A DNA stretch of 32,000 nucleotides from Crocosphaera subtropica ATCC 51142. GTDB lineage: Bacteria > Cyanobacteriota > Cyanobacteriia > Cyanobacteriales > Microcystaceae. Under the pieces are notes generated by a model. The model was not told the origin of the DNA. It ran no database searches and worked only from the letters and a program-made list of their open reading frames with translations. A program made the translations under genes and the position numbers. The stretch lies in the NCBI RefSeq assembly GCF_000017845.1, contig NC_010546.1, positions 4,320,001-4,352,000 of the forward strand. Direction: 5' to 3'. Of the stretch, positions 1 through 29,138 are shown piece by piece. How positions within the stretch are numbered: the first letter of the stretch is position 1; each line of letters begins with the position of its first letter.

Positions 1-1240
1 TATTAACTTGAACATCATGGTTACCACTGGCAAATTGCTGAGTCGCAGTTTGTAAGCGTTTAATCGGTTTGATAATAGTTGAAGCAATGGCCGCTGTAAT
101 TATGACCACAATTCCTAAAACTGCCACCGATAAAGCCAGTTGTAACATTAAACCTTCTTTGAGAATCTGATTTAATCCTAGTTCTGGATCACCGTAAACT
201 AAAATGGCAATCTCCTGGCCGTTATAGTTAGAAATAGCTTTAGCTGCTAGGGTATAGGGATGATTGTTGAGATAACCTCGTTGGGCAACCCCTTGTCCTT
301 GAGCTTGTACCGCCTTTTCTAAGATGGATTTATCGGGAAGGGGTAGATTAACATTGGCTTCTCTTCCTTCGGTTTTTTCAAATGCGGTAGCTAGGGTAAA
401 TGCTTTATTTTTAGGATCGTAAAGATACACTGCACTATACCCTATGCCTTGAAACCTATCGACAGTTTCCTGAACCATCTCTACATTACCGTTGACAATA
501 TCCCCAGCAACAAGAGTACCGATGACGGTTTGTGTCCCTGGCAATTTAACAGGGGTAACGGTATAACGAATCAGAGCCTCCTGGCTAGTGAGTCCAGCAG
601 GTAAAGGGGCTTTTTCTTGGATAAGTTCTTCCCAACTAACTAATTCACTGGTGCGAATCTGTTTTTGTTGTTTGATCGCTTCGGTGACTAACCCTTGGGG
701 ATTAAATATCTCTCCTTGACGTTGGCCATTCGCATTGGCGATGATCCGTAAATCTTTGCCCACTAGGGTGACATATTCTAGATCATGAATTTTTTGTTCA
801 TTTTTTAAGATAGATTGTAGTTGAGTACGAATTTCAGGGGATAAAGACTGTCCTTGACTAGCAGTTTTGCTGGCTTCAATAATGGTAGGGTCTTCGGCTT
901 CAGAGGCAAAGCCTAAAGCCATGATCTCTAAATCCCTACTATAATTAAATTCGGTAACTGCTAATTGAGACTTGGTTTGATACAGTCCATAAGAGCGCAA
1001 ACTACCCACTAAGGAAGTTGAGCCTAACCCCATTAATCCTCCTAAAGCCAGAAAAGTTAAGGCGGTAATCATCTGAGTTTTGCGACGGATCGGCAAGTTA
1101 TAAAACTGCTCAATCAGGGGTAATTTGGAGGAGGAAGGTGGGTTAGACGTGGGTAGGGTCTTAGAGGGTAAGTCAGAAGAAGGGGATGGAGAAACCCTAG
1201 AAGAAGAAGAGTTAGAAACTGGCTTGACAGGGGTTTGCAT
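1..1240 (-). CDS. Methyl-accepting chemotaxis protein, N-terminal 413 codons only (3' part lies beyond the left window edge): S/P-rich leader, TM, ~270-aa extracytoplasmic sensor region, TM, start of HAMP. It sits in the position of pixJ2/taxD' of the Synechocystis tax1 locus.
   Basis: Absent from the ORF track because no stop lies in the window. My own reverse-strand translation from the ATG (complement of 1238-1240) reads MQTPVKPVSNSSSSRVSPSPSSDLPSKTLPTSNPPSSSKLPLIEQFYNLPIRRKTQMITALTFLALGGLMGLG... It stays open to position 2 and ends ...IIKPIKRLQTATQQFASGNHDVQVN (HAMP-like). The layout matches the upstream MCP, and it starts 88 nt after that gene's stop. Confidence 0.75.
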   Translation of the reverse strand, partial: MQTPVKPVSNSSSSRVSPSPSSDLPSKTLPTSNPPSSSKLPLIEQFYNLPIRRKTQMITALTFLALGGLMGLGSTSLVGSLRSYGLYQTKSQLAVTEFNYSRDLEIMALGFASEAEDPTIIEASKTASQGQSLSPEIRTQLQSILKNEQKIHDLEYVTLVGKDLRIIANANGQRQGEIFNPQGLVTEAIKQQKQIRTSELVSWEELIQEKAPLPAGLTSQEALIRYTVTPVKLPGTQTVIGTLVAGDIVNGNVEMVQETVDRFQGIGYSAVYLYDPKNKAFTLATAFEKTEGREANVNLPLPDKSILEKAVQAQGQGVAQRGYLNNHPYTLAAKAISNYNGQEIAILVYGDPELGLNQILKEGLMLQLALSVAVLGIVVIITAAIASTIIKPIKRLQTATQQFASGNHDVQVN

Positions 1241-1328
1241 GGTACTGGATAAGGGAGAATCAATAAGGGATAATTCAGAATAATTAATTAGGGAGCATAA
1301 GGGTAAATAAATGACAATTCCCTAGAAC

Positions 1329-4300
1329 CTATTTAACTTTGAACTGTCGAACGCTCTCTTGTAATGACTGGGCAACAGCTAAGAGTTCTCGGAACGAATC
1401 AGACACTTGAATTGCCTCGCTAGAGGTTTTATCCGAGATGGCTGCTACTTGAGCCATGGTTTGGGTTACCGTCTGACTGGTTTGAGACTGTTCAATGGCA
1501 GAACGGGTAATGGCTTCGACTAATTCACTGATTTGAATACTGGCAGCCGTAATTTGATTAAGACTCTTACGGGTTTCATCCACTAATTTCGTCCCGGTAA
1601 CCACCTGTTCTGTCCCTGCTTCCATGGCCGCCACTACCTCGTTGGTTTCGGTTTGAATACTGGCCACTAGGGCTTCAATTTCTGCTGTGGCTGAGGCTGA
1701 CTGACGAGCCAGCGATCGCACTTCATCGGCAACCACCGCAAAGCCCCGTCCCTCTTCTCCTGCGTGGGCTGCCTCAATGGAGGCATTCAAGGCGAGTAAG
1801 TTGGTTTGGTCAGCAAAACTACTAATGAGGTTAACTACCTTAGAAATTTTCTGGGACGACTCCCCTAACCGTTTCACTTTTTTGGCGGTTTCTGCTACTG
1901 TTTGTCGAATAGCCATAATGCCATCTACGGTGCGGTTCATGGCATCTTCTCCCTGTTCTACGGTTTCGGTTGCTTGTTGTACAGTGGCTTCGGCTAATTC
2001 TGCGTTGGCAGCAACGGCCCGAATGGAGTCGTTCATGACCTGTAGTTTATCTAGGGTAGCAGAGATATCTTTTGCCTGTTCAAAGGCTTCTTGGGACAAG
2101 GATCGAATGGCAGACTCGTTTTTATGGGTCGTGTCTGAGAGTTGTCCGGTGGCGTTTTGTACCTGGTTTACGATCTTTCTTAAGTTTTCGATAGTGGCGT
2201 TATAAGAGTCGGCAATAGTCCCAATTTCATCTTCTGTGACCCTAGCCCGAATGGTGAGATCCCCTTGGGAAACGGGATCAACTTCCATGAGTAATTCTAA
2301 GGCCCGTCGTTGTAGTTGTTCTTTGGCTTTTCTTTGTTCTTGTTCAGAAATTTTCTGTTGTTCGAGGAGATCCGCTCTTTCTAGGGCAAAACCGATCTGA
2401 GCAGCCACTTGGGAGAAAAAGCTAATTTCAGAAGCATTCCAGTTCCTTGGGCCCGAACATTCGTGGGCAATATATAATCCTAAGAGTTTTCCTTTACGAA
2501 TAATGGGGGCCACTAGATTAGCACGGACTTTAAAGGGTTTGAGTTCATTGAGGTGACATTCGGTCAGTCCTGCGTTATGAATATCGGCGGTGGCTTGAAC
2601 TCGACCATTGAGGTATCTATCGACAAATTTTGTTGCAAAACAGGGGTCCATAATTTCGGCGTTTAATGCCTTGGGATATTCGTTGGCTACGTCTTCGGCC
2701 ACAATGGTTCCCATCCATTGCTCATCGAAGGTGTAAATCAGTACCCGATCGGTCTTCAGAGCGCGACGCATGTGTTCAACAGCTATCTGCATCACCTCTT
2801 CTGTGTTCAGGGAAGCTGCAATTTTAACGGTAATATCCCGCAACATTTGGGCCCGTTTAGCATCTCCTCGTTGTTGTTGTTGTAAGGTGATGCGATCGAG
2901 GGTAATGGTTAATTGTTCGGCCACTCGTTGCATAAAGCTAATTTCATCTTCTTGCCATTGATGAGGTCCTTGACAATGATGGGCAATTAATAAACCAAAG
3001 AGGTTTCCTTCTTGGAGAACTGGAACGACTAAATTGGCTTCGATGTGTAACTGTTCCATGAGTTGATGGTGTTCTGGGTGAAATCCTGCTTCATGGACAT
3101 TGTTGGTAGGGACAACTCGGCCTCTCAAGTATTGATCGAGTAATTTTTGAGGAATACATTGATCTTTTATGTCCGTTTCTAAAGCACTTGGATAAACGGG
3201 ATCATTGACTTCGTGAGAGATAAAGGCAGTTCCCTGAAAATTAAATTGATAGATGACCATCCGATCCACTTTAAGAATATCTCGTACCCCTTCTAAGGTC
3301 TGAGTTATCATCTTGTCTAAGGCACGGCGATCGGCAATAACGCTACTGGCAATTTCGGCGAGGAGGTTGGCTTGTTGAGTGGAAAAGATTTGTTTTTCTA
3401 CTAAGTGATTAATCCGTTGAGCCATGGTATTGACGTTTTCTGCTAAAACAGCAAACTCATCATCACCCAAAGCTTCTACTTCTACGGTTAAATCTCCCTG
3501 GCCAATTTTCTTCACAGCAGAGGTGACACGACGCAGGGGACGGATAATTTGTTCAGAAAGCAAAATAGCCACTGCTCCAGCTAAACTAGCCGTCACCAAA
3601 GTCCCTAAAAAGATGGCAGATAGGAGTTTTCGTTGAAGGCCAAAGGCGACAGCATTATCGAGGGTAACCACGGCATTCCATCCTAGATCAGGTAGCTTAT
3701 CAATGCTGGTAAAAGGGGATAAAGCTACTAATTGTTCTGTATCTACTTTTGCTCCTGGTTGTTGTTGATCGTTAAGAGTAGAATAAACCGAAAACAAGGA
3801 GGAAGCTTTAACTGCTTGGTGTTCAAACTTTCCGCTTCTCTCATCAGCTTTGCCAGCACTATTGGTTTGCGTTACTTGAATCCCATCAGGGGCAAGAAAA
3901 ACCTCTTCATTCTTATTGACTAAGTAAATATCTTCTCCTTGATTCATGCCCTGCTTAACCACGTTTTGCAGGTGTTTAACGGGCATTCTAGAGCGAATAA
4001 CTGCAACGATATCCCCCGTGTTACTGTCACGAACAGGAGCAGCAAAATAGACGTTAAACGTTCCTTCTGTAGTAGAAATGAGGGGTTGAGTGACAGTAGG
4101 TGATTGAGTGTTGAGAACTTCTTTAAAATAACTACGATCGCCATGATTTTTAAGAGGAGTCCCTCCGGATTGACCAATCACATCCCCTTGTAAATCAAAG
4201 ACAGCAATACTGTCATACAACTGATAAATATTAATATAACGATCTAAAACTTTTTGTTTCTCTTGAGGAGAAACCTCATTTCTTAATTCAGCCTTGGTAA

Positions 4301-4757
4301 AAGTGTCTAAGGTGGCTAACGTTTGGATATCGAGATAGCGATCGCTTATAAACCGAGACACCTCATCGCTCAACCCGACTGCACGGGAAATTTCTGTTGC
4401 TTTGGTCTGATGGTAGATAATCTTGTTGGAAATACCATAAGCTAAAGACCCCACGGCCACAACTGGCGTAATACCAATAACGGTAGCAGCGATAATACTT
4501 TTGGAACGTAAGGTTAAATCTTGCCACCATTGAATGATCGGGGAGTTTTTTCGGGGAGGGGGGGCTATGGTGGATGGTTCTCTAGGAAGTTCAGAGGTCA
4601 TGGGAACTTCGCTTTCAATGGCTAAAATTGGGGATTCCTCCCTTTGGCTGTCCGGGGTTTCTGGGGATTGATGGTTTTCTAGGGAAACTTCTTGATGAAC
4701 CAAGCCGTTGCTTTCGTTATTGTTCTGGGAATTGGAGTTAGGAGAGGTCTGAGTCAT
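1329..4757 (-). CDS. pixJ1: Photoreceptor-type methyl-accepting chemotaxis protein (PixJ1/TaxD1-like): TM, periplasmic sensor, TM, HAMP, GAF1, GAF2 (DXCF cyanobacteriochrome type), MCP signalling domain
   Basis: 1146-aa ORF. The MCP signature [31 protein letters not shown] is at aa 991-1021. Two GAF-like blocks lie at aa ~485-625 and ~655-797. GAF2 carries DPCF (Cys710) and TECH (Cys738). The track start at 4769 is TTG; the in-frame ATG at 4757 (MTQTSPNS...) is the more likely start. Confidence 0.9.
1712..1719. repeat. HIP1 octamer GCGATCGC
   Basis: Exact match read in sequence. Confidence 0.95.
2379..2807 (-). other. GAF2 domain with both cyanobacteriochrome cysteines (DXCF motif plus canonical Cys-His)
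   Basis: The segment reads ...[40 protein letters not shown]... The Cys codons are the complement of 2640-2642 and 2556-2558, checked directly against the nucleotide sequence. Confidence 0.75.
4338..4345. repeat. HIP1 octamer GCGATCGC
   Basis: Exact match read in sequence. Confidence 0.95.
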
Positions 4758-4879
4758 AACGTTAACCAAAGAGTAAATTTCAATAAAGGGGTACTAGCAA
4801 CCTAAGTTCGGAGTAGGAAGATCAATAAATTCAGAAGCTAAAAATAGTTAAATTTTTGAAATTAAGCAATAAGGAAATG

Positions 4880-4899
4880 ACAGAAGTTGACGCTTCTGT
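4880..4899 (-). promoter_or_regulatory. 7-bp hairpin (ACAGAAG / 6-nt loop / CUUCUGU) in the cheW-MCP spacer, followed on the minus-sense RNA by a U-rich tract; possible attenuator or processing site
   Basis: Inverted repeat read directly: acagaag ttgacg cttctgt. The stem is AU-rich and weak. Confidence 0.2.
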
Positions 4900-4931
4900 G
4901 ACTGGTGGGTCTTCTCAAGACGGTTGAATGA

Positions 4932-5480
4932 TTAGGGTTTAGGCATAGCTGCCAGGATCGCTTCTCCATCAAGAACGACCAACATATCTCCGTGGGGTGG
5001 CAACCAATAGCCTCGTAGAAAAGGGGCTAAATTAGAGGTCATGGTTGATCCAGGAGGGGATTGAATATCATTAGGGTTACACCATTCAATGTCATCGACT
5101 CCGCTAACCACAGCCCCTAAATGCTGACGATGGGCTTTATTTTGGGATATTGCCCCTGAATGGAGGACAATAGTACGATAAATGGGGGTAACTTGAGGTT
5201 GTTGCTGCCAAGGGGTTAACCCCAATAATTCCCCTAAGTCGATCATCCAGAGAATTTCTCCGCGCCAGTTATACACTCCCATTACCCAAGAGGGCATTTG
5301 GGGGATAGGAACGATTTGACCCACGGGAATGGTGATAACTTCCGTGAGTTGGCTGACGGGTAAGAGTAACGTGGTGTCTGGAATGAGTCGAAATCGCAAA
5401 AATTGTTCTAATTGATGACGATCCTGGGTTTCTAGGGAGGTTGTTGCAGGGTTGGTTTGAGAAAGTCCATGTTGAACCAC
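4932..5480 (-). CDS. pixI: CheW-like coupling protein
   Basis: 182 aa with a single CheW domain (PVSQLTEVITIPVGQIVPIPQMPSWVMGVYNWRGEILWMIDLGELLG). GTG start, 37 nt after the cheY-like stop. It sits between the CheY and MCP genes as in tax1. Confidence 0.85.
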   Translation of the reverse strand: MVQHGLSQTNPATTSLETQDRHQLEQFLRFRLIPDTTLLLPVSQLTEVITIPVGQIVPIPQMPSWVMGVYNWRGEILWMIDLGELLGLTPWQQQPQVTPIYRTIVLHSGAISQNKAHRQHLGAVVSGVDDIEWCNPNDIQSPPGSTMTSNLAPFLRGYWLPPHGDMLVVLDGEAILAAMPKP

Positions 5481-5517
5481 AATGGGTAACTCCTTTGATT
5501 ACGCTGGGTGCTTGAAT

Positions 5518-5880
5518 TTAGGCAATGAGTTGTTTAATGGTGTTAAGGAATATATCTTGATCGATGGGTTTGGGAATGTAAGCGTCTGCGCCTTGGCGTT
5601 TGCCCCAAAATTTGTCCATATCCGTGTCTTTGGTCGAACAAATAACGATAGGGATTTTACTGGTGCGTTCTTCGGCTTTGATCGCTCGGCAAATTTCAAA
5701 GCCACTGACTCCTGGTAAAACCACATCTAAGACAATAAGATCCGGAAGTTCTCCATTCAATTTTTCTAGGGCTTCTTCTCCACTGGTGGCAATGGCAGCC
5801 GTAATTCCTGCAATTTTTAAATATTGGGTAATAATTTCTCTTTCTGTTAAAGAATCTTCAATAACAAGCACAGTTCCCAT
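5518..5880 (-). CDS. pixH: Single-domain CheY-like response regulator
   Basis: 120 aa with receiver hallmarks: VLVIEDS, LIVLDVVLPG (phospho-acceptor Asp), ICSTK, and the conserved Lys in AYIPKP. Confidence 0.9.
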   Translation of the reverse strand: MGTVLVIEDSLTEREIITQYLKIAGITAAIATSGEEALEKLNGELPDLIVLDVVLPGVSGFEICRAIKAEERTSKIPIVICSTKDTDMDKFWGKRQGADAYIPKPIDQDIFLNTIKQLIA

Positions 5881-6013
5881 AATGATTTCTACCTCGGTTA
5901 ATGGTTGATTAAAGGGGTTCTATAGTCTTACAATTCCCGAAAATTCAAGGAAAGTAACATTTTTGATGGATAGGGTGCGTAAAATTTACAAAGGGAAAAC
6001 CTTGAAATGATCC

Positions 6014-7219
6014 CTAAGCGACGTTTTCTTGTTTAAGATGTTTGCGAATGGCACTGAGAACTAAGTCAGGATTAACCGGTTTACTCATAAAATCCGTTGA
6101 ACCGACCATTTTTGCCCGAACGCGATCAACAATGCCGTCATTTCCTGTGAGAATAATGATGGGGGTATGACGGAAAAAAGAAAGTTTTCTGAGTTGTCCA
6201 CAAATTTCATAGCCGTTGGCATTAGGCATCACCAAATCTAAGAAAATAACAGCCGGTTTACGGGCTAATAAGATGGCGATCGCTCTTAAGGGATCATTGA
6301 TGCCCAAAAATTGATAGTTAGCCCCCACTAGGATTTTTTCTAGGGTTTGACACATCAAGGGACTATCGTCGACACAGGCTATCAAAGGCCCCACGGACAC
6401 TTCTGGTGTGGCTACGGTGGGGGTAGAAGGGGGGATAGAAACGGGAGGGGATAAGTCTTCGATGGTAATTAATTCCACTAATCCCATCTGTACATAGGGC
6501 AGCAGGGAACTGGTGACCGTCACCACATCCCGTTTCATGCGAACGGAAAGATCCCGTAAGGTTTGATTGCCGTCTAGGAGTTGTTTTAAGGTTTGATAAA
6601 CTTGGGGAGAGGTACGCTGTTGTAATTCCTCAGCCTGTCTAATAATGGGGGCAGAATTGGGAGAGCGATCGGCAACTTTTGCCCCTTGCCAAGCTTGCCA
6701 TTGTTGATGGGCTTCGCTAATTAATTGATCGGCATCGATTAACACCAATCGGGTTGACAGTAAGTTGTCTTGTCTCAGTTCACAGGTCACTTCCATGGTT
6801 TGGGTGATATCAAACAGCACTTCGATAATCACTGAACGAATCATTCTGGCTGCTTGTTCACGACTAACTTTTTGTTGTTCTACCCACAAACACAGTAGTT
6901 GATATTCCCAACATAAGCGAAAGTCTTGATTGCCTAAACTGGCTAAATCCAGTTGCAAAGAGGATAATTTAGAGGCAATTTCAGGCAAGTAACGGGCAAT
7001 ATGTCTTCGCCAGCGTCTGACGGGATGGGTTCCCCCGGTGGCGTACATAATTCGTCCCAAGTACAAATAGAAAAACCATTTTTCTCCTTTACTATTCGTC
7101 AGGATCAGTTGACCACTGAATCTCGGTTGTTTAAGGGTATCAAAAAAGCTTGCTTGTCTTGAGGGGGTAAATTCTGGTATGGAAATTGGATTTTGAGGAG
7201 GATAGGAAGCTGTCATCAT
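6014..7219 (-). CDS. pixG: PatA-subfamily response regulator (N-terminal PATAN/DUF4388 domain plus C-terminal receiver)
   Basis: PATAN-like N-terminus (FSGQLILTNSKGEKWFFYLYLGRIMYATGG). C-terminal receiver (ACVDDS...IFLDLVMPNANG...ILTGN...FMSKP). The track ORF begins at a GTG (7246); the in-frame ATG-ATG at 7219/7216 is the more likely start. Confidence 0.85.
   Translation of the reverse strand: MMTASYPPQNPISIPEFTPSRQASFFDTLKQPRFSGQLILTNSKGEKWFFYLYLGRIMYATGGTHPVRRWRRHIARYLPEIASKLSSLQLDLASLGNQDFRLCWEYQLLCLWVEQQKVSREQAARMIRSVIIEVLFDITQTMEVTCELRQDNLLSTRLVLIDADQLISEAHQQWQAWQGAKVADRSPNSAPIIRQAEELQQRTSPQVYQTLKQLLDGNQTLRDLSVRMKRDVVTVTSSLLPYVQMGLVELITIEDLSPPVSIPPSTPTVATPEVSVGPLIACVDDSPLMCQTLEKILVGANYQFLGINDPLRAIAILLARKPAVIFLDLVMPNANGYEICGQLRKLSFFRHTPIIILTGNDGIVDRVRAKMVGSTDFMSKPVNPDLVLSAIRKHLKQENVA
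6276..6283. repeat. HIP1 octamer GCGATCGC
   Basis: Exact match read in sequence. Confidence 0.95.
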
Positions 7220-24260: not shown

Positions 24261-24971
24261 TTATAATGTTTGATAAATAGTTTCTAATTTACTTCTTTCC
24301 CAAATGCTTTCTAACGAGGGTAAATAGTGAGGAAAACTGAAATTTAAACCAGCTTCTTCTTGAAAATTTTTAACTAAATCTGCTGCTATTATTCTCAAAG
24401 CATTGCAATTAAACTCTTTTTCTATACTTGTTTGATATTCAATATTGTTGAAGAAATTATCTTGATTATTTCTAAATTGGCTTGCTGTTAAGTCAGTTTC
24501 TGTTAAGTCAGCTTCTTGTAGATTTGCTCCTGTTAAATTCGCTCCTATTAAATAACTTCGTTTCAAATTACATCCTTTTAAATTAGCATTTCCTAAATTG
24601 GTATCGACTAAATAACTATCGATAATATAGGATTGATACAAGTTTGCATTCTCAAGATTGGCTTTACTTAAATCTGAATTAATTAAAATTGTATGACATA
24701 AATTAGCTTCAGATAAAATGGCTTTAAAACACACAGCACCAGCTAAATTAGCATAACTTAAATTAGCTTTTTTAAAAGAAGCATTGCTTAAATTTGTATT
24801 GACTAAAATAGCTTGCTCAAGGTTAACAGAATTAAGATTAGCACCTCGCAAATTTAATTGACTTAAATTGGCTGTTTTGAGATCCGGAATAATTTCTGGG
24901 TTCTGATTTCGCCATTGATTCCAAGTATCCACACTCTTTAATAAAATGTCAAGTTGCTGTTGATTTGCCAT
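24261..24971 (-). CDS. Pentapeptide-repeat protein
   Basis: About 27 consecutive A(D/N)LxX pentapeptides (ANLSQLNLRGANLNSVNLEQAILVNTNLSNASFKKANLSYANL...) followed by a ~70-aa non-repeat tail; 236 aa. Confidence 0.9.
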   Translation of the reverse strand: MANQQQLDILLKSVDTWNQWRNQNPEIIPDLKTANLSQLNLRGANLNSVNLEQAILVNTNLSNASFKKANLSYANLAGAVCFKAILSEANLCHTILINSDLSKANLENANLYQSYIIDSYLVDTNLGNANLKGCNLKRSYLIGANLTGANLQEADLTETDLTASQFRNNQDNFFNNIEYQTSIEKEFNCNALRIIAADLVKNFQEEAGLNFSFPHYLPSLESIWERSKLETIYQTL

Positions 24972-26577: not shown

Positions 26578-26589
26578 AAGGTTCGTTTC

Positions 26590-26617
26590 AGTTATCAGTG
26601 ATCAGTGACCAGTTATC
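26590..26617. repeat. STRR-like tandem heptamer array (AGTTATC AGTGATC AGTGACC AGTTATC)
   Basis: Four contiguous 7-mers read directly in the 98-nt spacer between the helicase stop and the selO start. Confidence 0.7.
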
Positions 26618-26675
26618 ATAATTGACTACTCACTGTTTTAATTTTACCTTTATCTCGATTTATGATCTGAATTGA

Positions 26676-29138
26676 TCAGTTATAATTCATAATTCCTTGG
26701 GTATTATTGAGAATTACATCGGTTAAGTCTGTGTTAGTTAAATCGGCATCGGTTAAATTGGCGTTGGTCAAATCTGCACCGATCAATTTAGCTTTAACTA
26801 AACTGACTCCTGTTAAGTTAGCATTTTTCAGATTAGCTGCGATTAATTTAGCCCGATTAAGGTTACTGTTTTGCAAATTCGTCCCAGATAAATTTGCCCC
26901 AATAAGATTAATATCTTCTAAATTGAGTTTTTGCAAATTCATATTAGAAAGTTCAGCTTGTTGAAAGTTTCTTTCTCCTAATTGATAACGTTGTAATAAT
27001 TCTGCTGCTTCTGTGACTCGAATTTCTCGTTGTTTGGGAGGGGTATAAGTAATCGTAAAAGTATCTTTTTGTTCTAGGACTTTTTCTAACTCTTGATACA
27101 GAGAATACTGACCAATTCCACTGACGGTTAACCATCCTCGTGATCGTGTCATTGCTACAAATAATTGATTCCTTAACAATAAGTCATTTTCTACTTTAGC
27201 AATCTGATCCAATCCTAGAATATAAACCATATCTGCTTCTTGTCCTTTAGCCCGATAAATACGAGAAATTGTAATAGCCCCCTCATACCAAAATTGATTA
27301 GGATTCTGCTCACTTTCTTGGCTGAAATCATTACAATTTTTACTGCCTGGAATGTAAATATCGATTCCTTGTCTGATGAGAAAATTAGCAATGGCTTGCT
27401 GTAGTTTTAAAGATTCAAAATAATCCCCTAAAATTAATACTAAAATTTCTTTGCTGGGTCGTAATCCATCGTGACGTAAATTATTATAAATTTGTTGAGA
27501 TAAAGCACTAATTTCTTGCTGTCTTGATAAGTATTTATTGAATTGAATGAATGGTTCTTTCCAAGCTTTATATAAAGGATTAGGTGAATTGTTAAGCGGT
27601 CGTTTAATAGTTATTTTTTGTCCTTTTTTCAACTCTCCCTCAATTTCATAACCTAATGTTTTCCAATCTTTTTGAGCGGTCATTCCTGTTAATATGCCTT
27701 GGGATCTTAACCATCCCATTCCCATAGCATGAGCAGCAATTATAATGGAATGAGGGGTACGATAACAACAGGACATCACCTCTGTTTTATTCACATCATT
27801 ATCATATTTTCCCGTGACAATATTGCCTAATTCTTTCCCAAAAATTTCACTAGGATGAGGAACTTTCAAACTTCCTAAACTTTGTAATTCATCATAAGTC
27901 CAGATCAATCTTTTTTGTTGAGTATTAATAGCATCAATAGGACGTAATGCTTGATAAGCTAACCAATAAAAAGGCTGTTTTCCTTGATAAAGCCAATTGT
28001 TTACCATTAAATCTTGTCCTTCATCAATTAAAATAGCATCAAAAATCTGAGGGATAGCTGTTTGATTTAAGAGGTTAACACACACTTCTCCTAAGGCTTC
28101 TGACGGTTGTTGAAAACTGGTTTGATGAACCCCTAAAGGAACCACTCCCGTTACTTGGCATAAAAAGCGATAAAATCCTAATTGTTCCCTGGAACCCCAA
28201 GCATGAAAAATTTGTAATTGTTGACTATTTTTATTATAGGTTTTTTGCTGATGACTAAAATATCTAATCCATTGATCAATCTGTTCTATAATTTCCTCAT
28301 AAAGACTGCGAGAAAAGAAAATAAATGCAATTTTCCACTGGGGATTTTTTAGATACATTATGGCTGCTTTTTGACAGAGTAAGACAGTTTTTCCCGAACC
28401 AGCAACTCCTCGTATTCTTTGAAATCCTGGAGGGATTTGTTTAGCAATTTTCTCCTGTTGTAAATCAAATTGATGAAGATGTTTTCTTAGTTGTTTTAAA
28501 ATTTTTCCTTTACTGTTATTTTTACTTAGAACTTGATGAGAGTCTGTCGATAAAACAGGAGTGCCAGATAGGATACTTAGCAGTAAATTCCATTGATAAT
28601 TATTTATGCTTTGTCCTTTAATGATTTTTGGTGTTTGGCGAATAATTCGCTTAATGGTTTCTAATGAAAGTAAATTATCTTGAAACAAAATAGGGGGATT
28701 ACTAGGGATTTTATGAAATCCTTTGAGTTGCCATTTTTGGGAAGTAATAAAAGGTAAAGCAACTAATGCTTTTGCTGCAATTTTATTATATAAACTGGGT
28801 TCTTGATTAACATATTCTAATAAGGAAAATAACTGAGTTTCTGCTTGTTGGTAAGGATTCCCTGAAGGAATATAGAAATTTTGATAATTCCAAGAATGTC
28901 CTTGAATACTAACAAGTTGATCAATCAGTAAAGATTTAACTTCAATGATTATTAATCCTAACTCATAATCAGCGATTAAAATATCAGCTTCTTTACGGTT
29001 ATTTTTCCCTATTGAGAAGATAGGATAACGCCAATAAATTAGACATTTCCTCTGATCGAATACTTGTTTTATTTTTTCCCATACTATTATTTCTCCCTTT
29101 TGTCCCCTATAGTTAAAAGATTCAGTCGTAATAAACAT
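26676..29138 (-). CDS. NERD (PD-(D/E)xK-type nuclease) - SF1 UvrD-like helicase - C-terminal pentapeptide-repeat fusion protein
   Basis: The NERD core is EADILIADYELGLIIIEVK (aa 50-68). Helicase motifs are Walker A GVAGSGKT (aa 244-251, nt 28386-28409), Walker B/II ILIDEGQD (DEGQD = nt 28011-28025), motif V-like RAKGQEADMVYI and motif VI-like LFVAMTRSRGW. About 17 pentapeptide repeats span aa 726-812 (nt 26703-26963). Confidence 0.85.
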   Translation of the reverse strand: MFITTESFNYRGQKGEIIVWEKIKQVFDQRKCLIYWRYPIFSIGKNNRKEADILIADYELGLIIIEVKSLLIDQLVSIQGHSWNYQNFYIPSGNPYQQAETQLFSLLEYVNQEPSLYNKIAAKALVALPFITSQKWQLKGFHKIPSNPPILFQDNLLSLETIKRIIRQTPKIIKGQSINNYQWNLLLSILSGTPVLSTDSHQVLSKNNSKGKILKQLRKHLHQFDLQQEKIAKQIPPGFQRIRGVAGSGKTVLLCQKAAIMYLKNPQWKIAFIFFSRSLYEEIIEQIDQWIRYFSHQQKTYNKNSQQLQIFHAWGSREQLGFYRFLCQVTGVVPLGVHQTSFQQPSEALGEVCVNLLNQTAIPQIFDAILIDEGQDLMVNNWLYQGKQPFYWLAYQALRPIDAINTQQKRLIWTYDELQSLGSLKVPHPSEIFGKELGNIVTGKYDNDVNKTEVMSCCYRTPHSIIIAAHAMGMGWLRSQGILTGMTAQKDWKTLGYEIEGELKKGQKITIKRPLNNSPNPLYKAWKEPFIQFNKYLSRQQEISALSQQIYNNLRHDGLRPSKEILVLILGDYFESLKLQQAIANFLIRQGIDIYIPGSKNCNDFSQESEQNPNQFWYEGAITISRIYRAKGQEADMVYILGLDQIAKVENDLLLRNQLFVAMTRSRGWLTVSGIGQYSLYQELEKVLEQKDTFTITYTPPKQREIRVTEAAELLQRYQLGERNFQQAELSNMNLQKLNLEDINLIGANLSGTNLQNSNLNRAKLIAANLKNANLTGVSLVKAKLIGADLTNANLTDADLTNTDLTDVILNNTQGIMNYN

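Follow-up and report, generated by a model that had tools for sequence, protein, structure and literature searches.

We analysed a 32,000-nucleotide stretch of the Crocosphaera subtropica ATCC 51142 genome (contig NC_010546.1, positions 4,320,001 to 4,352,000; this whole stretch is the window below) and focused on one gene at window positions 26676..29138 of the minus strand, which encodes a NERD nuclease, a superfamily 1 (SF1) helicase and a pentapeptide-repeat tail in a single polypeptide. A sequence-only reading of the window had placed an open reading frame (ORF) of 820 aa here, and it is listed exactly so, with an ATG start. The predicted protein is 100% identical to the C. subtropica ATCC 51142 protein annotated "rfrA family pentapeptide repeat", and its source replicon is the 4.93-Mb chromosome. 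We found that all three modules proposed by the earlier reading are present, with the enzyme motifs intact, and that the gene is a conserved chromosomal gene of one large cyanobacterial group, without island or accessory character.

The gene lies in a co-directional run of five minus-strand genes, in the order YvcK/CofD-like, PMT_2 glycosyltransferase, the target gene, SelO and a stand-alone pentapeptide protein, and it starts 17 bp past the stop of the upstream PMT_2 gene. Its GC content (0.328) and its GC content at third codon positions (GC3, 0.222) are like those of its neighbours, so a compositional anomaly or island signature was rejected. A tRNA search of the window found none, and the ten large ORFs scanned, which include all four flanking genes, hold no transposase or integrase domain. 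Hence, nothing marks the locus as an island, and the earlier description of this gene as the most accessory-looking one in the window does not survive: its composition matches that of its neighbours, and it sits in a co-directional housekeeping run.

The NERD-type PD-(D/E)xK nuclease domain spans aa 1-150 (28689..29138, minus strand, as for all features of the gene) and was assigned from PF08378 matches of orthologues, the secondary structure of an AlphaFold2 (AF2) model and Foldseek searches. The catalytic residues of the putative nuclease had been read as D52 and E66-V-K68, and translation places them at just these positions: D52, the predicted catalytic aspartate, at 28983..28985, and E66-V-K68, the predicted catalytic (D/E)xK motif, at 28935..28943. 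A further acidic residue, E16, lies in the GE motif of the first helix (29091..29093), likewise verified by translation, and E16, D52, E66 and K68 are invariant across 53 orthologues. The Pfam profile gave a divided answer, since the window protein itself has no PF08378 match at E<=1, whereas 11/20 orthologues at 53-82% identity do match (best E=2.8e-9); precomputed NERD matches are on record for most homologues. The nuclease core of the AF2 model has the order alpha-beta-beta-beta-alpha-beta (helix 11-27, strands 32-41, 48-57 and 61-67, helix 95-111, strand 122-128). When the isolated N-terminal model was compared with the PDB by Foldseek, the only significant matches were to PD-(D/E)xK DNA nucleases, namely Shedu SduA (E=1.9e-5, 21-24% identity), NucS/EndoMS (NucS, 3.5e-4) and MspJI, with TM-scores of only 0.25-0.40. 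Hence, the NERD assignment is the weakest of the three modules on this single sequence, yet it holds because of the orthologue profile matches, the invariant residues, the modelled core and the structural matches. The nuclease is followed by a helical linker (aa 151-229, 28452..28688) that is helical in the AF2 model and is the least conserved part of the protein, with a mean identity to the window protein of 0.44 vs ~0.60 elsewhere.

The UvrD-like SF1 helicase/ATPase core covers aa 230-700 (27039..28451) and was identified from PF13538, the PADLOC model PDLC03002 and Foldseek. The earlier reading of a UvrD-like SF1 ATPase with GSGKT, DEGQD and VAMTRSR is borne out, since all motifs are intact by translation and UvrD_C_2 (PF13538) matches the window protein at 37.4 bits, above the cutoff of 27.4. 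Walker A (motif I) reads GVAGSGKT at aa 244-251 (28386..28409), Walker B (motif II) reads DEGQD at aa 372-376 (28011..28025), and motif III reads WTYDELQS at aa 413-420 (27879..27902). Further along are a motif IV-like YRTP at aa 459-462 (27753..27764), motif V, TISRIYRAKGQEAD, at aa 623-636 (27231..27272) and motif VI, VAMTRSR, at aa 661-667 (27138..27158). Motifs I, II, III and V rest on orthologue conservation, YRTP is invariant, as are T664 and R665 of motif VI, and the key helicase-motif residues are invariant in the 53 orthologues. The AF2 model, built from the orthologue alignment and read through its confidence scores and secondary structure, has a predicted local distance difference test (pLDDT) of 88.3 and a predicted template modelling score (pTM) of 0.86. 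Foldseek of the whole model returned SLFN11/14, RecD, PcrA (1pjr), UvrD (2is4), Rep (1uaa) and Upf1, all with probability 1.0, and the RNA helicase Sen1 is also among the structural matches. Motif IV (YRTP) and motif V (HRAKGxE) resemble those of the UvrD/PcrA/Rep DNA helicases, which are SF1A motifs. The core is therefore UvrD-like in motifs IV and V, with structural matches that mix SF1A and SF1B, and the Pfam SLFN-g3_helicase profile (PF09848) matches weakly (E=0.042).

The tail begins with a connector and an N-terminal cap helix (aa 701-722, 26973..27038), modelled with pLDDT 81-88 and carrying conserved R704, E705, L714, Y718 and G721. Next comes a right-handed pentapeptide beta-helix (aa 723-812, 26703..26972), supported by PF00805, PDB matches and an analysis of its faces. 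The beta-helix proposed earlier is confirmed as a domain, but its repeat number changes from ~17 to 18, as direct reading gives 18 contiguous repeats, or ~4.5 coils, well beyond the eight contiguous A(D/N)LXX repeats that define a pentapeptide-repeat protein. Both Pfam pentapeptide profiles match (PF00805, E=1.1e-24 and 86 bits vs a cutoff of 20.2; PF13599, E=1.8e-14), pentapeptide-repeat proteins in the PDB match down to 6.5e-26, among them Np275/276, Rfr and Alr5209, and the beta-helix is modelled with pLDDT 91-96.

The four faces of this helix are unequal. Outward residues of face 1 (repeats 1, 5, 9, 13 and 17) are conserved at 0.70, vs 0.44-0.49 on the other three faces, and face 1 bears N724, N744, K764 and K784, a ladder of exposed isoleucines (Ile746/Ile766/Ile786) and the small residues G747, A767 and G787. 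Tail charge, taken as the net charge of the sequence, has a median of -1 over the ~114-aa tails of 79 orthologues (range -7 to +4) and is -2 in this protein. With only 4.5 coils, the helix would be ~22 Å long, as we estimate from standard beta-helix geometry. In this protein the repeats end just eight residues before the C-terminus, and hence there is no room for a dimerisation helix; the tail is longer in some orthologues. A connector of ~8 residues joins the last helicase strand to the cap helix and is conserved (R704, E705) and confidently modelled, so the tail looks rigidly attached, with no flexible leash. Face 1 looks like a surface for specific contact with protein, or possibly with the DNA backbone, and not like an anionic DNA surrogate. 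Hence, a near-neutral charge and a single conserved Ile/Lys face fit a docking surface better than a mimic of B-DNA, and the "built-in DNA mimic" of the sequence-only reading is not upheld.

We found the tailed protein to be widespread in one bacterial group. The 120 best matches among 5.8 billion proteins are all cyanobacterial, 811-896 aa long, with 96-100% query coverage and 52-100% identity, and no fewer than 80 cyanobacterial species have a tailed orthologue. When one genome per GTDB species was scanned, 441 held a relative; this figure is an upper bound for the tailed clade, as 23/95 tail-less representatives contain the search patterns too. Among the best 80 of the 441, which were inspected, all complete copies are tailed, and all are cyanobacterial save one on a contig labelled Gracilibacteria. 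That contig (JAAUUT010000104.1, locus L021, from a metagenome-assembled genome labelled Candidatus Gracilibacteria) carries a full-length orthologue of 56% identity, and its upstream ORF matches that of Hydrococcus rivularis (L020) in length and almost exactly in coordinates. The contig is probably cyanobacterial and mis-binned.

Identity declines as phylogenetic distance grows, from 69-84% in Crocosphaera and ~61% in other Microcystaceae to 53-58% in Pleurocapsales and Xenococcaceae, 53-55% in Spirulina and 50-53% in Coleofasciculaceae, Microcoleus, Phormidium and Symploca. Conservation is similar in the three domains, with mean identities to the window protein of 0.61, 0.60 and 0.57. The positions of the orthologues among housekeeping genes are conserved clade by clade: in most of 23 loci a VTT/DedA gene lies directly upstream, with AdoHcyase and ExoD farther upstream; ChlM occupies -1 or -2 in 12 loci; SelO is the +1 neighbour in 13 loci and PMT_2 is found at -1 or -2 in 9 loci of Crocosphaera. 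Neighbour clustering across 84 loci found no conserved partner gene beside the orthologues. Likewise, no defence system recurs among the 135 flanking proteins from 34 loci that were scanned with PADLOC, the only matches being to generic methyltransferase, kinase and ATPase-like models. Two DNA-related neighbours were seen too infrequently for a functional link: DciA (PF05258), which loads the replicative helicase, within +/-2 genes of the orthologue in 4/34 loci, and an HhH-GPD glycosylase at -2 in C. watsonii.

On long or complete records every orthologue is chromosomal, and the remainder are on unassigned contigs. Among 72,556 plasmids there is no tailed orthologue, the best plasmid match being a tail-less protein of 46% identity, and 50,697 phage records and IMG/VR hold neither tailed orthologues nor other relatives. 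Hence, identity that tracks phylogeny, clade-wise synteny, absence from plasmids and phages and even conservation of the domains together indicate a vertically inherited chromosomal gene under ordinary purifying selection. The sequence-only reading had set a patchy, island-associated distribution against that of a universally conserved and syntenic housekeeping gene. The first finds no support in at least 80 species with these features and no recurrent defence genes; the second largely holds, in that the gene is conserved and syntenic within clades, though perhaps not universal in cyanobacteria.

The tail distinguishes this clade from a larger family. Tail-less NERD-helicases of ~700-750 aa (typically ~720) are collinear with the target over aa 2-705 at 28-48% identity and share the same NERD catalytic set and helicase motifs; the family comprises 629 50%-identity clusters at E<=1e-30. 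NCBI names the ~720-aa relatives 'nuclease-related domain-containing DEAD/DEAH box helicase', an uncharacterised family. In a search of 1.84 billion cluster representatives, only ~4 full-length 50%-identity clusters have the tail. A neighbour-joining tree of the core places the tailed proteins in one clade nested among tail-less ones, and hence the tail was acquired once. Tail-less relatives of 40-46% identity are found on plasmids of Nostoc, Leptolyngbya, Calothrix, Deinococcus and haloarchaea; insertion sequences flank or interrupt some of them, and some adjoin other nucleases and helicases. On plasmid pANSO36A of Nostoc cf. commune (L088:5989-9495), an IS4 transposase insertion splits one tail-less relative into a 'NERD domain' ORF and an 'ATP-binding domain' ORF.

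We also compared what the tail-less proteins carry where the target has its repeats. The C-terminal tail is at most 60 residues in 60/90 of them (P0124-P0269), with a median of 24. A uniformly acidic C-terminus, which would be the equivalent of a mimic, was considered and rejected, as a net negative charge is found in only 60% and one of -3 or lower in 27%. Some of these C-termini end in hydrophobic motifs (...DEPQLF, ...DGQLPLRF, ...DEFDLV, ...DDFEWVEQE) that recall SSB C-terminal or clamp-binding peptides. Because short variable peptides occupy the same position in the tail-less relatives, the C-terminus may be an adaptor slot across the family.

Other features of the window were recorded alongside. 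The stand-alone pentapeptide-repeat protein two genes downstream of the target (24261-24971, minus strand) has 236 aa and matches PF00805 with E=6e-33, and its gene is kept near that position in 7 loci, mostly of Crocosphaera. Between the target and selO, the spacer at 26578-26675 (minus-strand reading) holds a short imperfect tandem repeat, GGTCACTGATCACTGATAACTGA. There is a GC step in the window, from 0.41-0.47 at 1-7000 (GC3 ~0.40) to 0.29-0.38 at 8000-31000 (GC3 ~0.19-0.26), and the first 7 kb encodes an MCP/GAF/HAMP chemotaxis-type receptor and a response regulator.

From the motifs, we propose that the UvrD-like SF1 motor (aa 230-700) would translocate on or unwind DNA at the expense of ATP, and would feed or position that DNA for the N-terminal, predicted Mg2+-dependent NERD/PD-(D/E)xK endonuclease (aa 1-150). 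The design logic would be analogous to that of AddA/RecB, with the domain order reversed, and to that of Nhi. One monophyletic cyanobacterial branch of the widespread ~720-aa NERD-helicases gained the 18-repeat beta-helix once and has since passed the gene on vertically as a single chromosomal gene. The repeat domain may serve as a rigid docking or adaptor module whose face 1 contacts the enzyme core or a conserved cellular partner, and the cellular role may be constitutive DNA processing or surveillance, with DNA ends, gaps or branched intermediates as possible substrates. Constitutive DNA processing or genome maintenance, by a domesticated descendant of a mobile nuclease-helicase stock with an adaptor tail, is thus the reading that we favour, and we hold it tentatively.

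Of the rival explanations, immunity has to be taken most seriously, even if we judge it rather unlikely. The protein would then be a long-retained chromosomal form of single-protein innate immunity with Nhi-type logic, recognising and degrading foreign or replicating phage or plasmid DNA and using its tail as a sensor or partner module. Such a role would suit the match of the helicase core to PADLOC 'Helicase' PDLC03002 (E=1.2e-92) and to the candidate model 'NERD+UvrD' (2.4e-17), and its 30% identity over aa 151-705 to a plasmid helicase beside a DUF2290 gene, a pair like a T7-blocking system (PMC9122126). It would also suit the tail-less relatives on cyanobacterial, Deinococcus and haloarchaeal plasmids, some with insertion sequences, the defence nuclease SduA as the nearest solved structure to the nuclease domain, the variable positions that pentapeptide repeats occupy in cyanobacterial conflict systems (PMC7159879) and the occasional defence or toxin neighbours described below. 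However, the distribution of the gene is the opposite of that reported for Nhi (bioRxiv 10.1101/776245): identity tracks phylogeny, the neighbours are clade-wise syntenic housekeeping genes with no recurrent defence system among them, and tailed copies are absent from the plasmids, phages and viral contigs searched. Moreover, the 84 loci hold no DUF2290 partner, the Nhi, AbiO and GajB profiles cover only the P-loop or motif V-VI regions, and all domains evolve at a uniform, ordinary rate.

The tail suggests another explanation, in which a tethered mimic of B-DNA either fills the protein's own DNA groove, an auto-inhibition that substrate would relieve, or is directed at gyrase or some other DNA-binding enzyme in the manner of MfpA and Qnr. 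The quadrilateral beta-helix fold shared with MfpA/Qnr (weak matches), the fusion of the tail to DNA-handling enzymes, the selection on one tail face, a high pTM compatible with a docked tail and the acidic C-terminal peptides at the same position in some tail-less relatives agree with it. The tail itself makes it a poor candidate: its net charge is near zero, its 4.5 coils are followed by too few residues in this protein for a dimerisation helix, its conserved face presents K764, K784 and exposed isoleucines, its connector is short and ordered rather than a flexible leash, and its Qnr (26.8 vs 240) and MfpA (24.3 vs 360) scores are far under the cutoffs. We therefore regard a mimic as improbable. 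Least probable of all, and in our judgement very improbable, is a Schlafen-like RNA enzyme, that is, a nuclease plus SF1 helicase that cleaves RNA such as tRNA, rRNA or mRNA under stress. It draws on human SLFN11 and SLFN14 as the top whole-protein structural matches, on the weak SLFN-g3_helicase profile match and on Upf1 and Sen1 among the structural matches, but the TM-scores to SLFN proteins are low (~0.3), the NERD domain has a restriction-endonuclease fold whose significant structural neighbours (SduA, NucS/EndoMS, MspJI) are all DNA nucleases, and motifs IV and V resemble those of DNA helicases.

Several observations weigh against constitutive DNA processing with an adaptor tail. Microcystis, Synechocystis and Nostoc orthologues do not appear among the 120 proteins and 80 loci listed, and hence lineage losses or patchiness are possible. 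In one 9.3-Mb genome (L003:10774-14520) the genes after the orthologue are GmrSD_N, DUF4276 and OLD-like AAA_15, and in Rippkaea orientalis (L001:7565-7994) a BrnT toxin gene and a small ORF precede it; these GmrSD/OLD-like and BrnT neighbours are isolated cases, and none turned up in the other clades. Among relatives with a tested function, the closest is an anti-phage helicase, and conflict systems frequently use NERD domains as effectors (PMC10853773). Under strict criteria, the core has just two positions conserved specifically in the tailed clade, Y109 and F586, and looser criteria gave no convincing cluster; hence, no clear docking surface for the tail is visible on the core. Finally, our search of the literature on the NERD-helicase-pentapeptide fusion, STM2767 and cyanobacterial NERD domains found no description or test of a member of the tailed clade.

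Y109 and F586 are candidate tail contacts in a further possibility, which we think doubtful, namely that the pentapeptide helix is an allosteric strut or gate that connects the NERD nuclease to the helicase insertion domain through its conserved Ile/Lys face, licensing the nuclease on particular DNA structures or upon partner binding. If this were true, it would be the first cyanobacterial pentapeptide-repeat domain with a defined biochemical role, and a mobile defence nuclease-helicase would have been domesticated into a lineage-wide DNA-surveillance enzyme.

The earlier remark that no system with this three-part architecture has been described agrees with our searches, which found no paper on the fusion. 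No fusion to a helicase or NERD domain is mentioned in a 2021 review of pentapeptide-repeat proteins (PMC8145042), a Deinococcus review merely lists a 'NERD domain protein' as variably present, and a 2-nonanone paper on Synechococcus 7942 was set aside as it concerned unrelated genes. The architecture is already in public annotation, under 'pentapeptide repeat-containing protein', 'NERD domain protein' and 'superfamily I DNA and RNA helicase'. Its interest lies elsewhere. Cyanobacteria each encode dozens of pentapeptide-repeat proteins, the biochemical functions of which were described in the 2021 review as "almost completely unknown" (PMC8145042). Here, the repeat domain is fused to two assayable types of enzyme, a DNA-dependent ATPase/helicase and a nuclease, and so offers a tractable handle on pentapeptide-domain function. 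In addition, the family contrasts a mobile plasmid branch, with a distant branch linked to defence, with a branch that is fixed in the chromosome and vertically inherited, a contrast useful for studying the domestication of defence-type nuclease-helicases, or how immune genes become core.

Among known systems, the one with the nearest functionally tested helicase is an anti-phage one, and this kinship supports the link to anti-phage proteins drawn in the earlier reading. The PDLC03002 match is strong and partial, covering aa 181-706 of the target and profile positions 147-650 of 707, and the NCBIfam 'STM2767 family helicase' model scores 102 bits vs a cutoff of 550. From the PADLOC naming, PDLC03002 and STM2767 probably model the helicase of the Helicase+DUF2290 system. 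Helicase+DUF2290 blocks T7 (Rousset et al. 2022, PMC9122126). On the 11.4-kb tet(39) plasmid pSSA3_1 of Acinetobacter nosocomialis (L087:2314-5114), we found a 709-aa helicase that matches the target at the identity given above (E=6e-68). A DUF2290 gene and a BrnT/BrnA pair come directly after the helicase gene, and the helicase has an N-terminus laid out like NERD, but with the ExK lysine replaced (..LVEG..). This gene pair matches the Helicase+DUF2290 system, and kinship with a helicase of that type probably explains the strong PADLOC 'Helicase' match. The helicase cores are homologous; in contrast to the target, the N-terminal ~147 profile positions do not align, there is no pentapeptide tail and a DUF2290 partner is needed. 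A phmmer search with the DUF2290 protein gave no credible match in the 84 loci, and the neighbours of the target are PMT_2 and SelO. Hence, with no DUF2290 gene nearby, the target is not a member of Helicase+DUF2290; it has an intact nuclease of its own.

The comparison with Nhi, drawn in the sequence-only reading, holds as an analogy of design and no further. Like the target, Nhi (SERP2475) has a PD-(D/E)xK nuclease at the N-terminus, an SF1 helicase in the centre and a third, variable domain at the C-terminus (bioRxiv 10.1101/776245), but its nuclease is HsdR-like and its helicase is of the DUF2075 / SF1B (Dda/Upf1-like) type. The PADLOC Nhi model matches the target with E=2.6e-5 and only over aa 227-274, the P-loop; membership was rejected, as there is no full-length profile match and PF09848 gives E=0.042. 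Fewer than 1% of genomes hold an Nhi homologue; the homologues do not follow host phylogeny, they are often on plasmids, and 72% have a defence gene no more than 20 genes away (bioRxiv 10.1101/776245). Nhi is thus rare, horizontally spread and associated with defence islands, and the target gene is none of these.

Gabija was likewise rejected, as the GajB profile matches only P-loop and motif V-VI segments (E=6e-7) and no GajA-like gene is a neighbour; the AbiO profile is similarly confined to P-loop or motif V-VI regions. Membership of the MfpA/Qnr family was rejected on the profile scores given above. MfpA/Qnr/AlbG share the right-handed quadrilateral beta-helix fold with the tail (weak matches), and they are stand-alone dimers with a surface like B-DNA in shape and charge that act on gyrase (PMC8145042, PMC7980463), whereas the tail is a fused, near-neutral domain of 4.5 coils with a conserved Lys/Ile face and, in this protein, no room for a dimerisation helix. 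Shedu SduA and NucS/EndoMS, the best structural matches of the N-terminal domain, have the PD-(D/E)xK core in common with it and, unlike the target, lack both helicase and pentapeptide domain.

AddA and RecB also combine a UvrD-like SF1 motor and a PD-(D/E)xK nuclease in one chain, and provide a plausible analogy for DNA-end processing. Their nuclease is C-terminal, so that the order is reversed relative to the target, and they work with the partners AddB or RecC/RecD, whereas no partner gene is conserved beside the target; at the level of sequence the target is not a member, and its structural matches here are generic SF1 ones, RecD included. The tail-less NERD-helicases differ in that they have no pentapeptide domain and end in a C-terminal peptide that is mostly <60 residues and often acidic, and many are plasmid-borne, whereas tailed proteins turned up on chromosomes or unassigned contigs and never on a plasmid, with synteny inside each clade. 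On present evidence the target does not represent a new kind of system and fits best among the NERD/UvrD-like nuclease-helicases, with a lineage-specific pentapeptide domain as its proposed adaptor.

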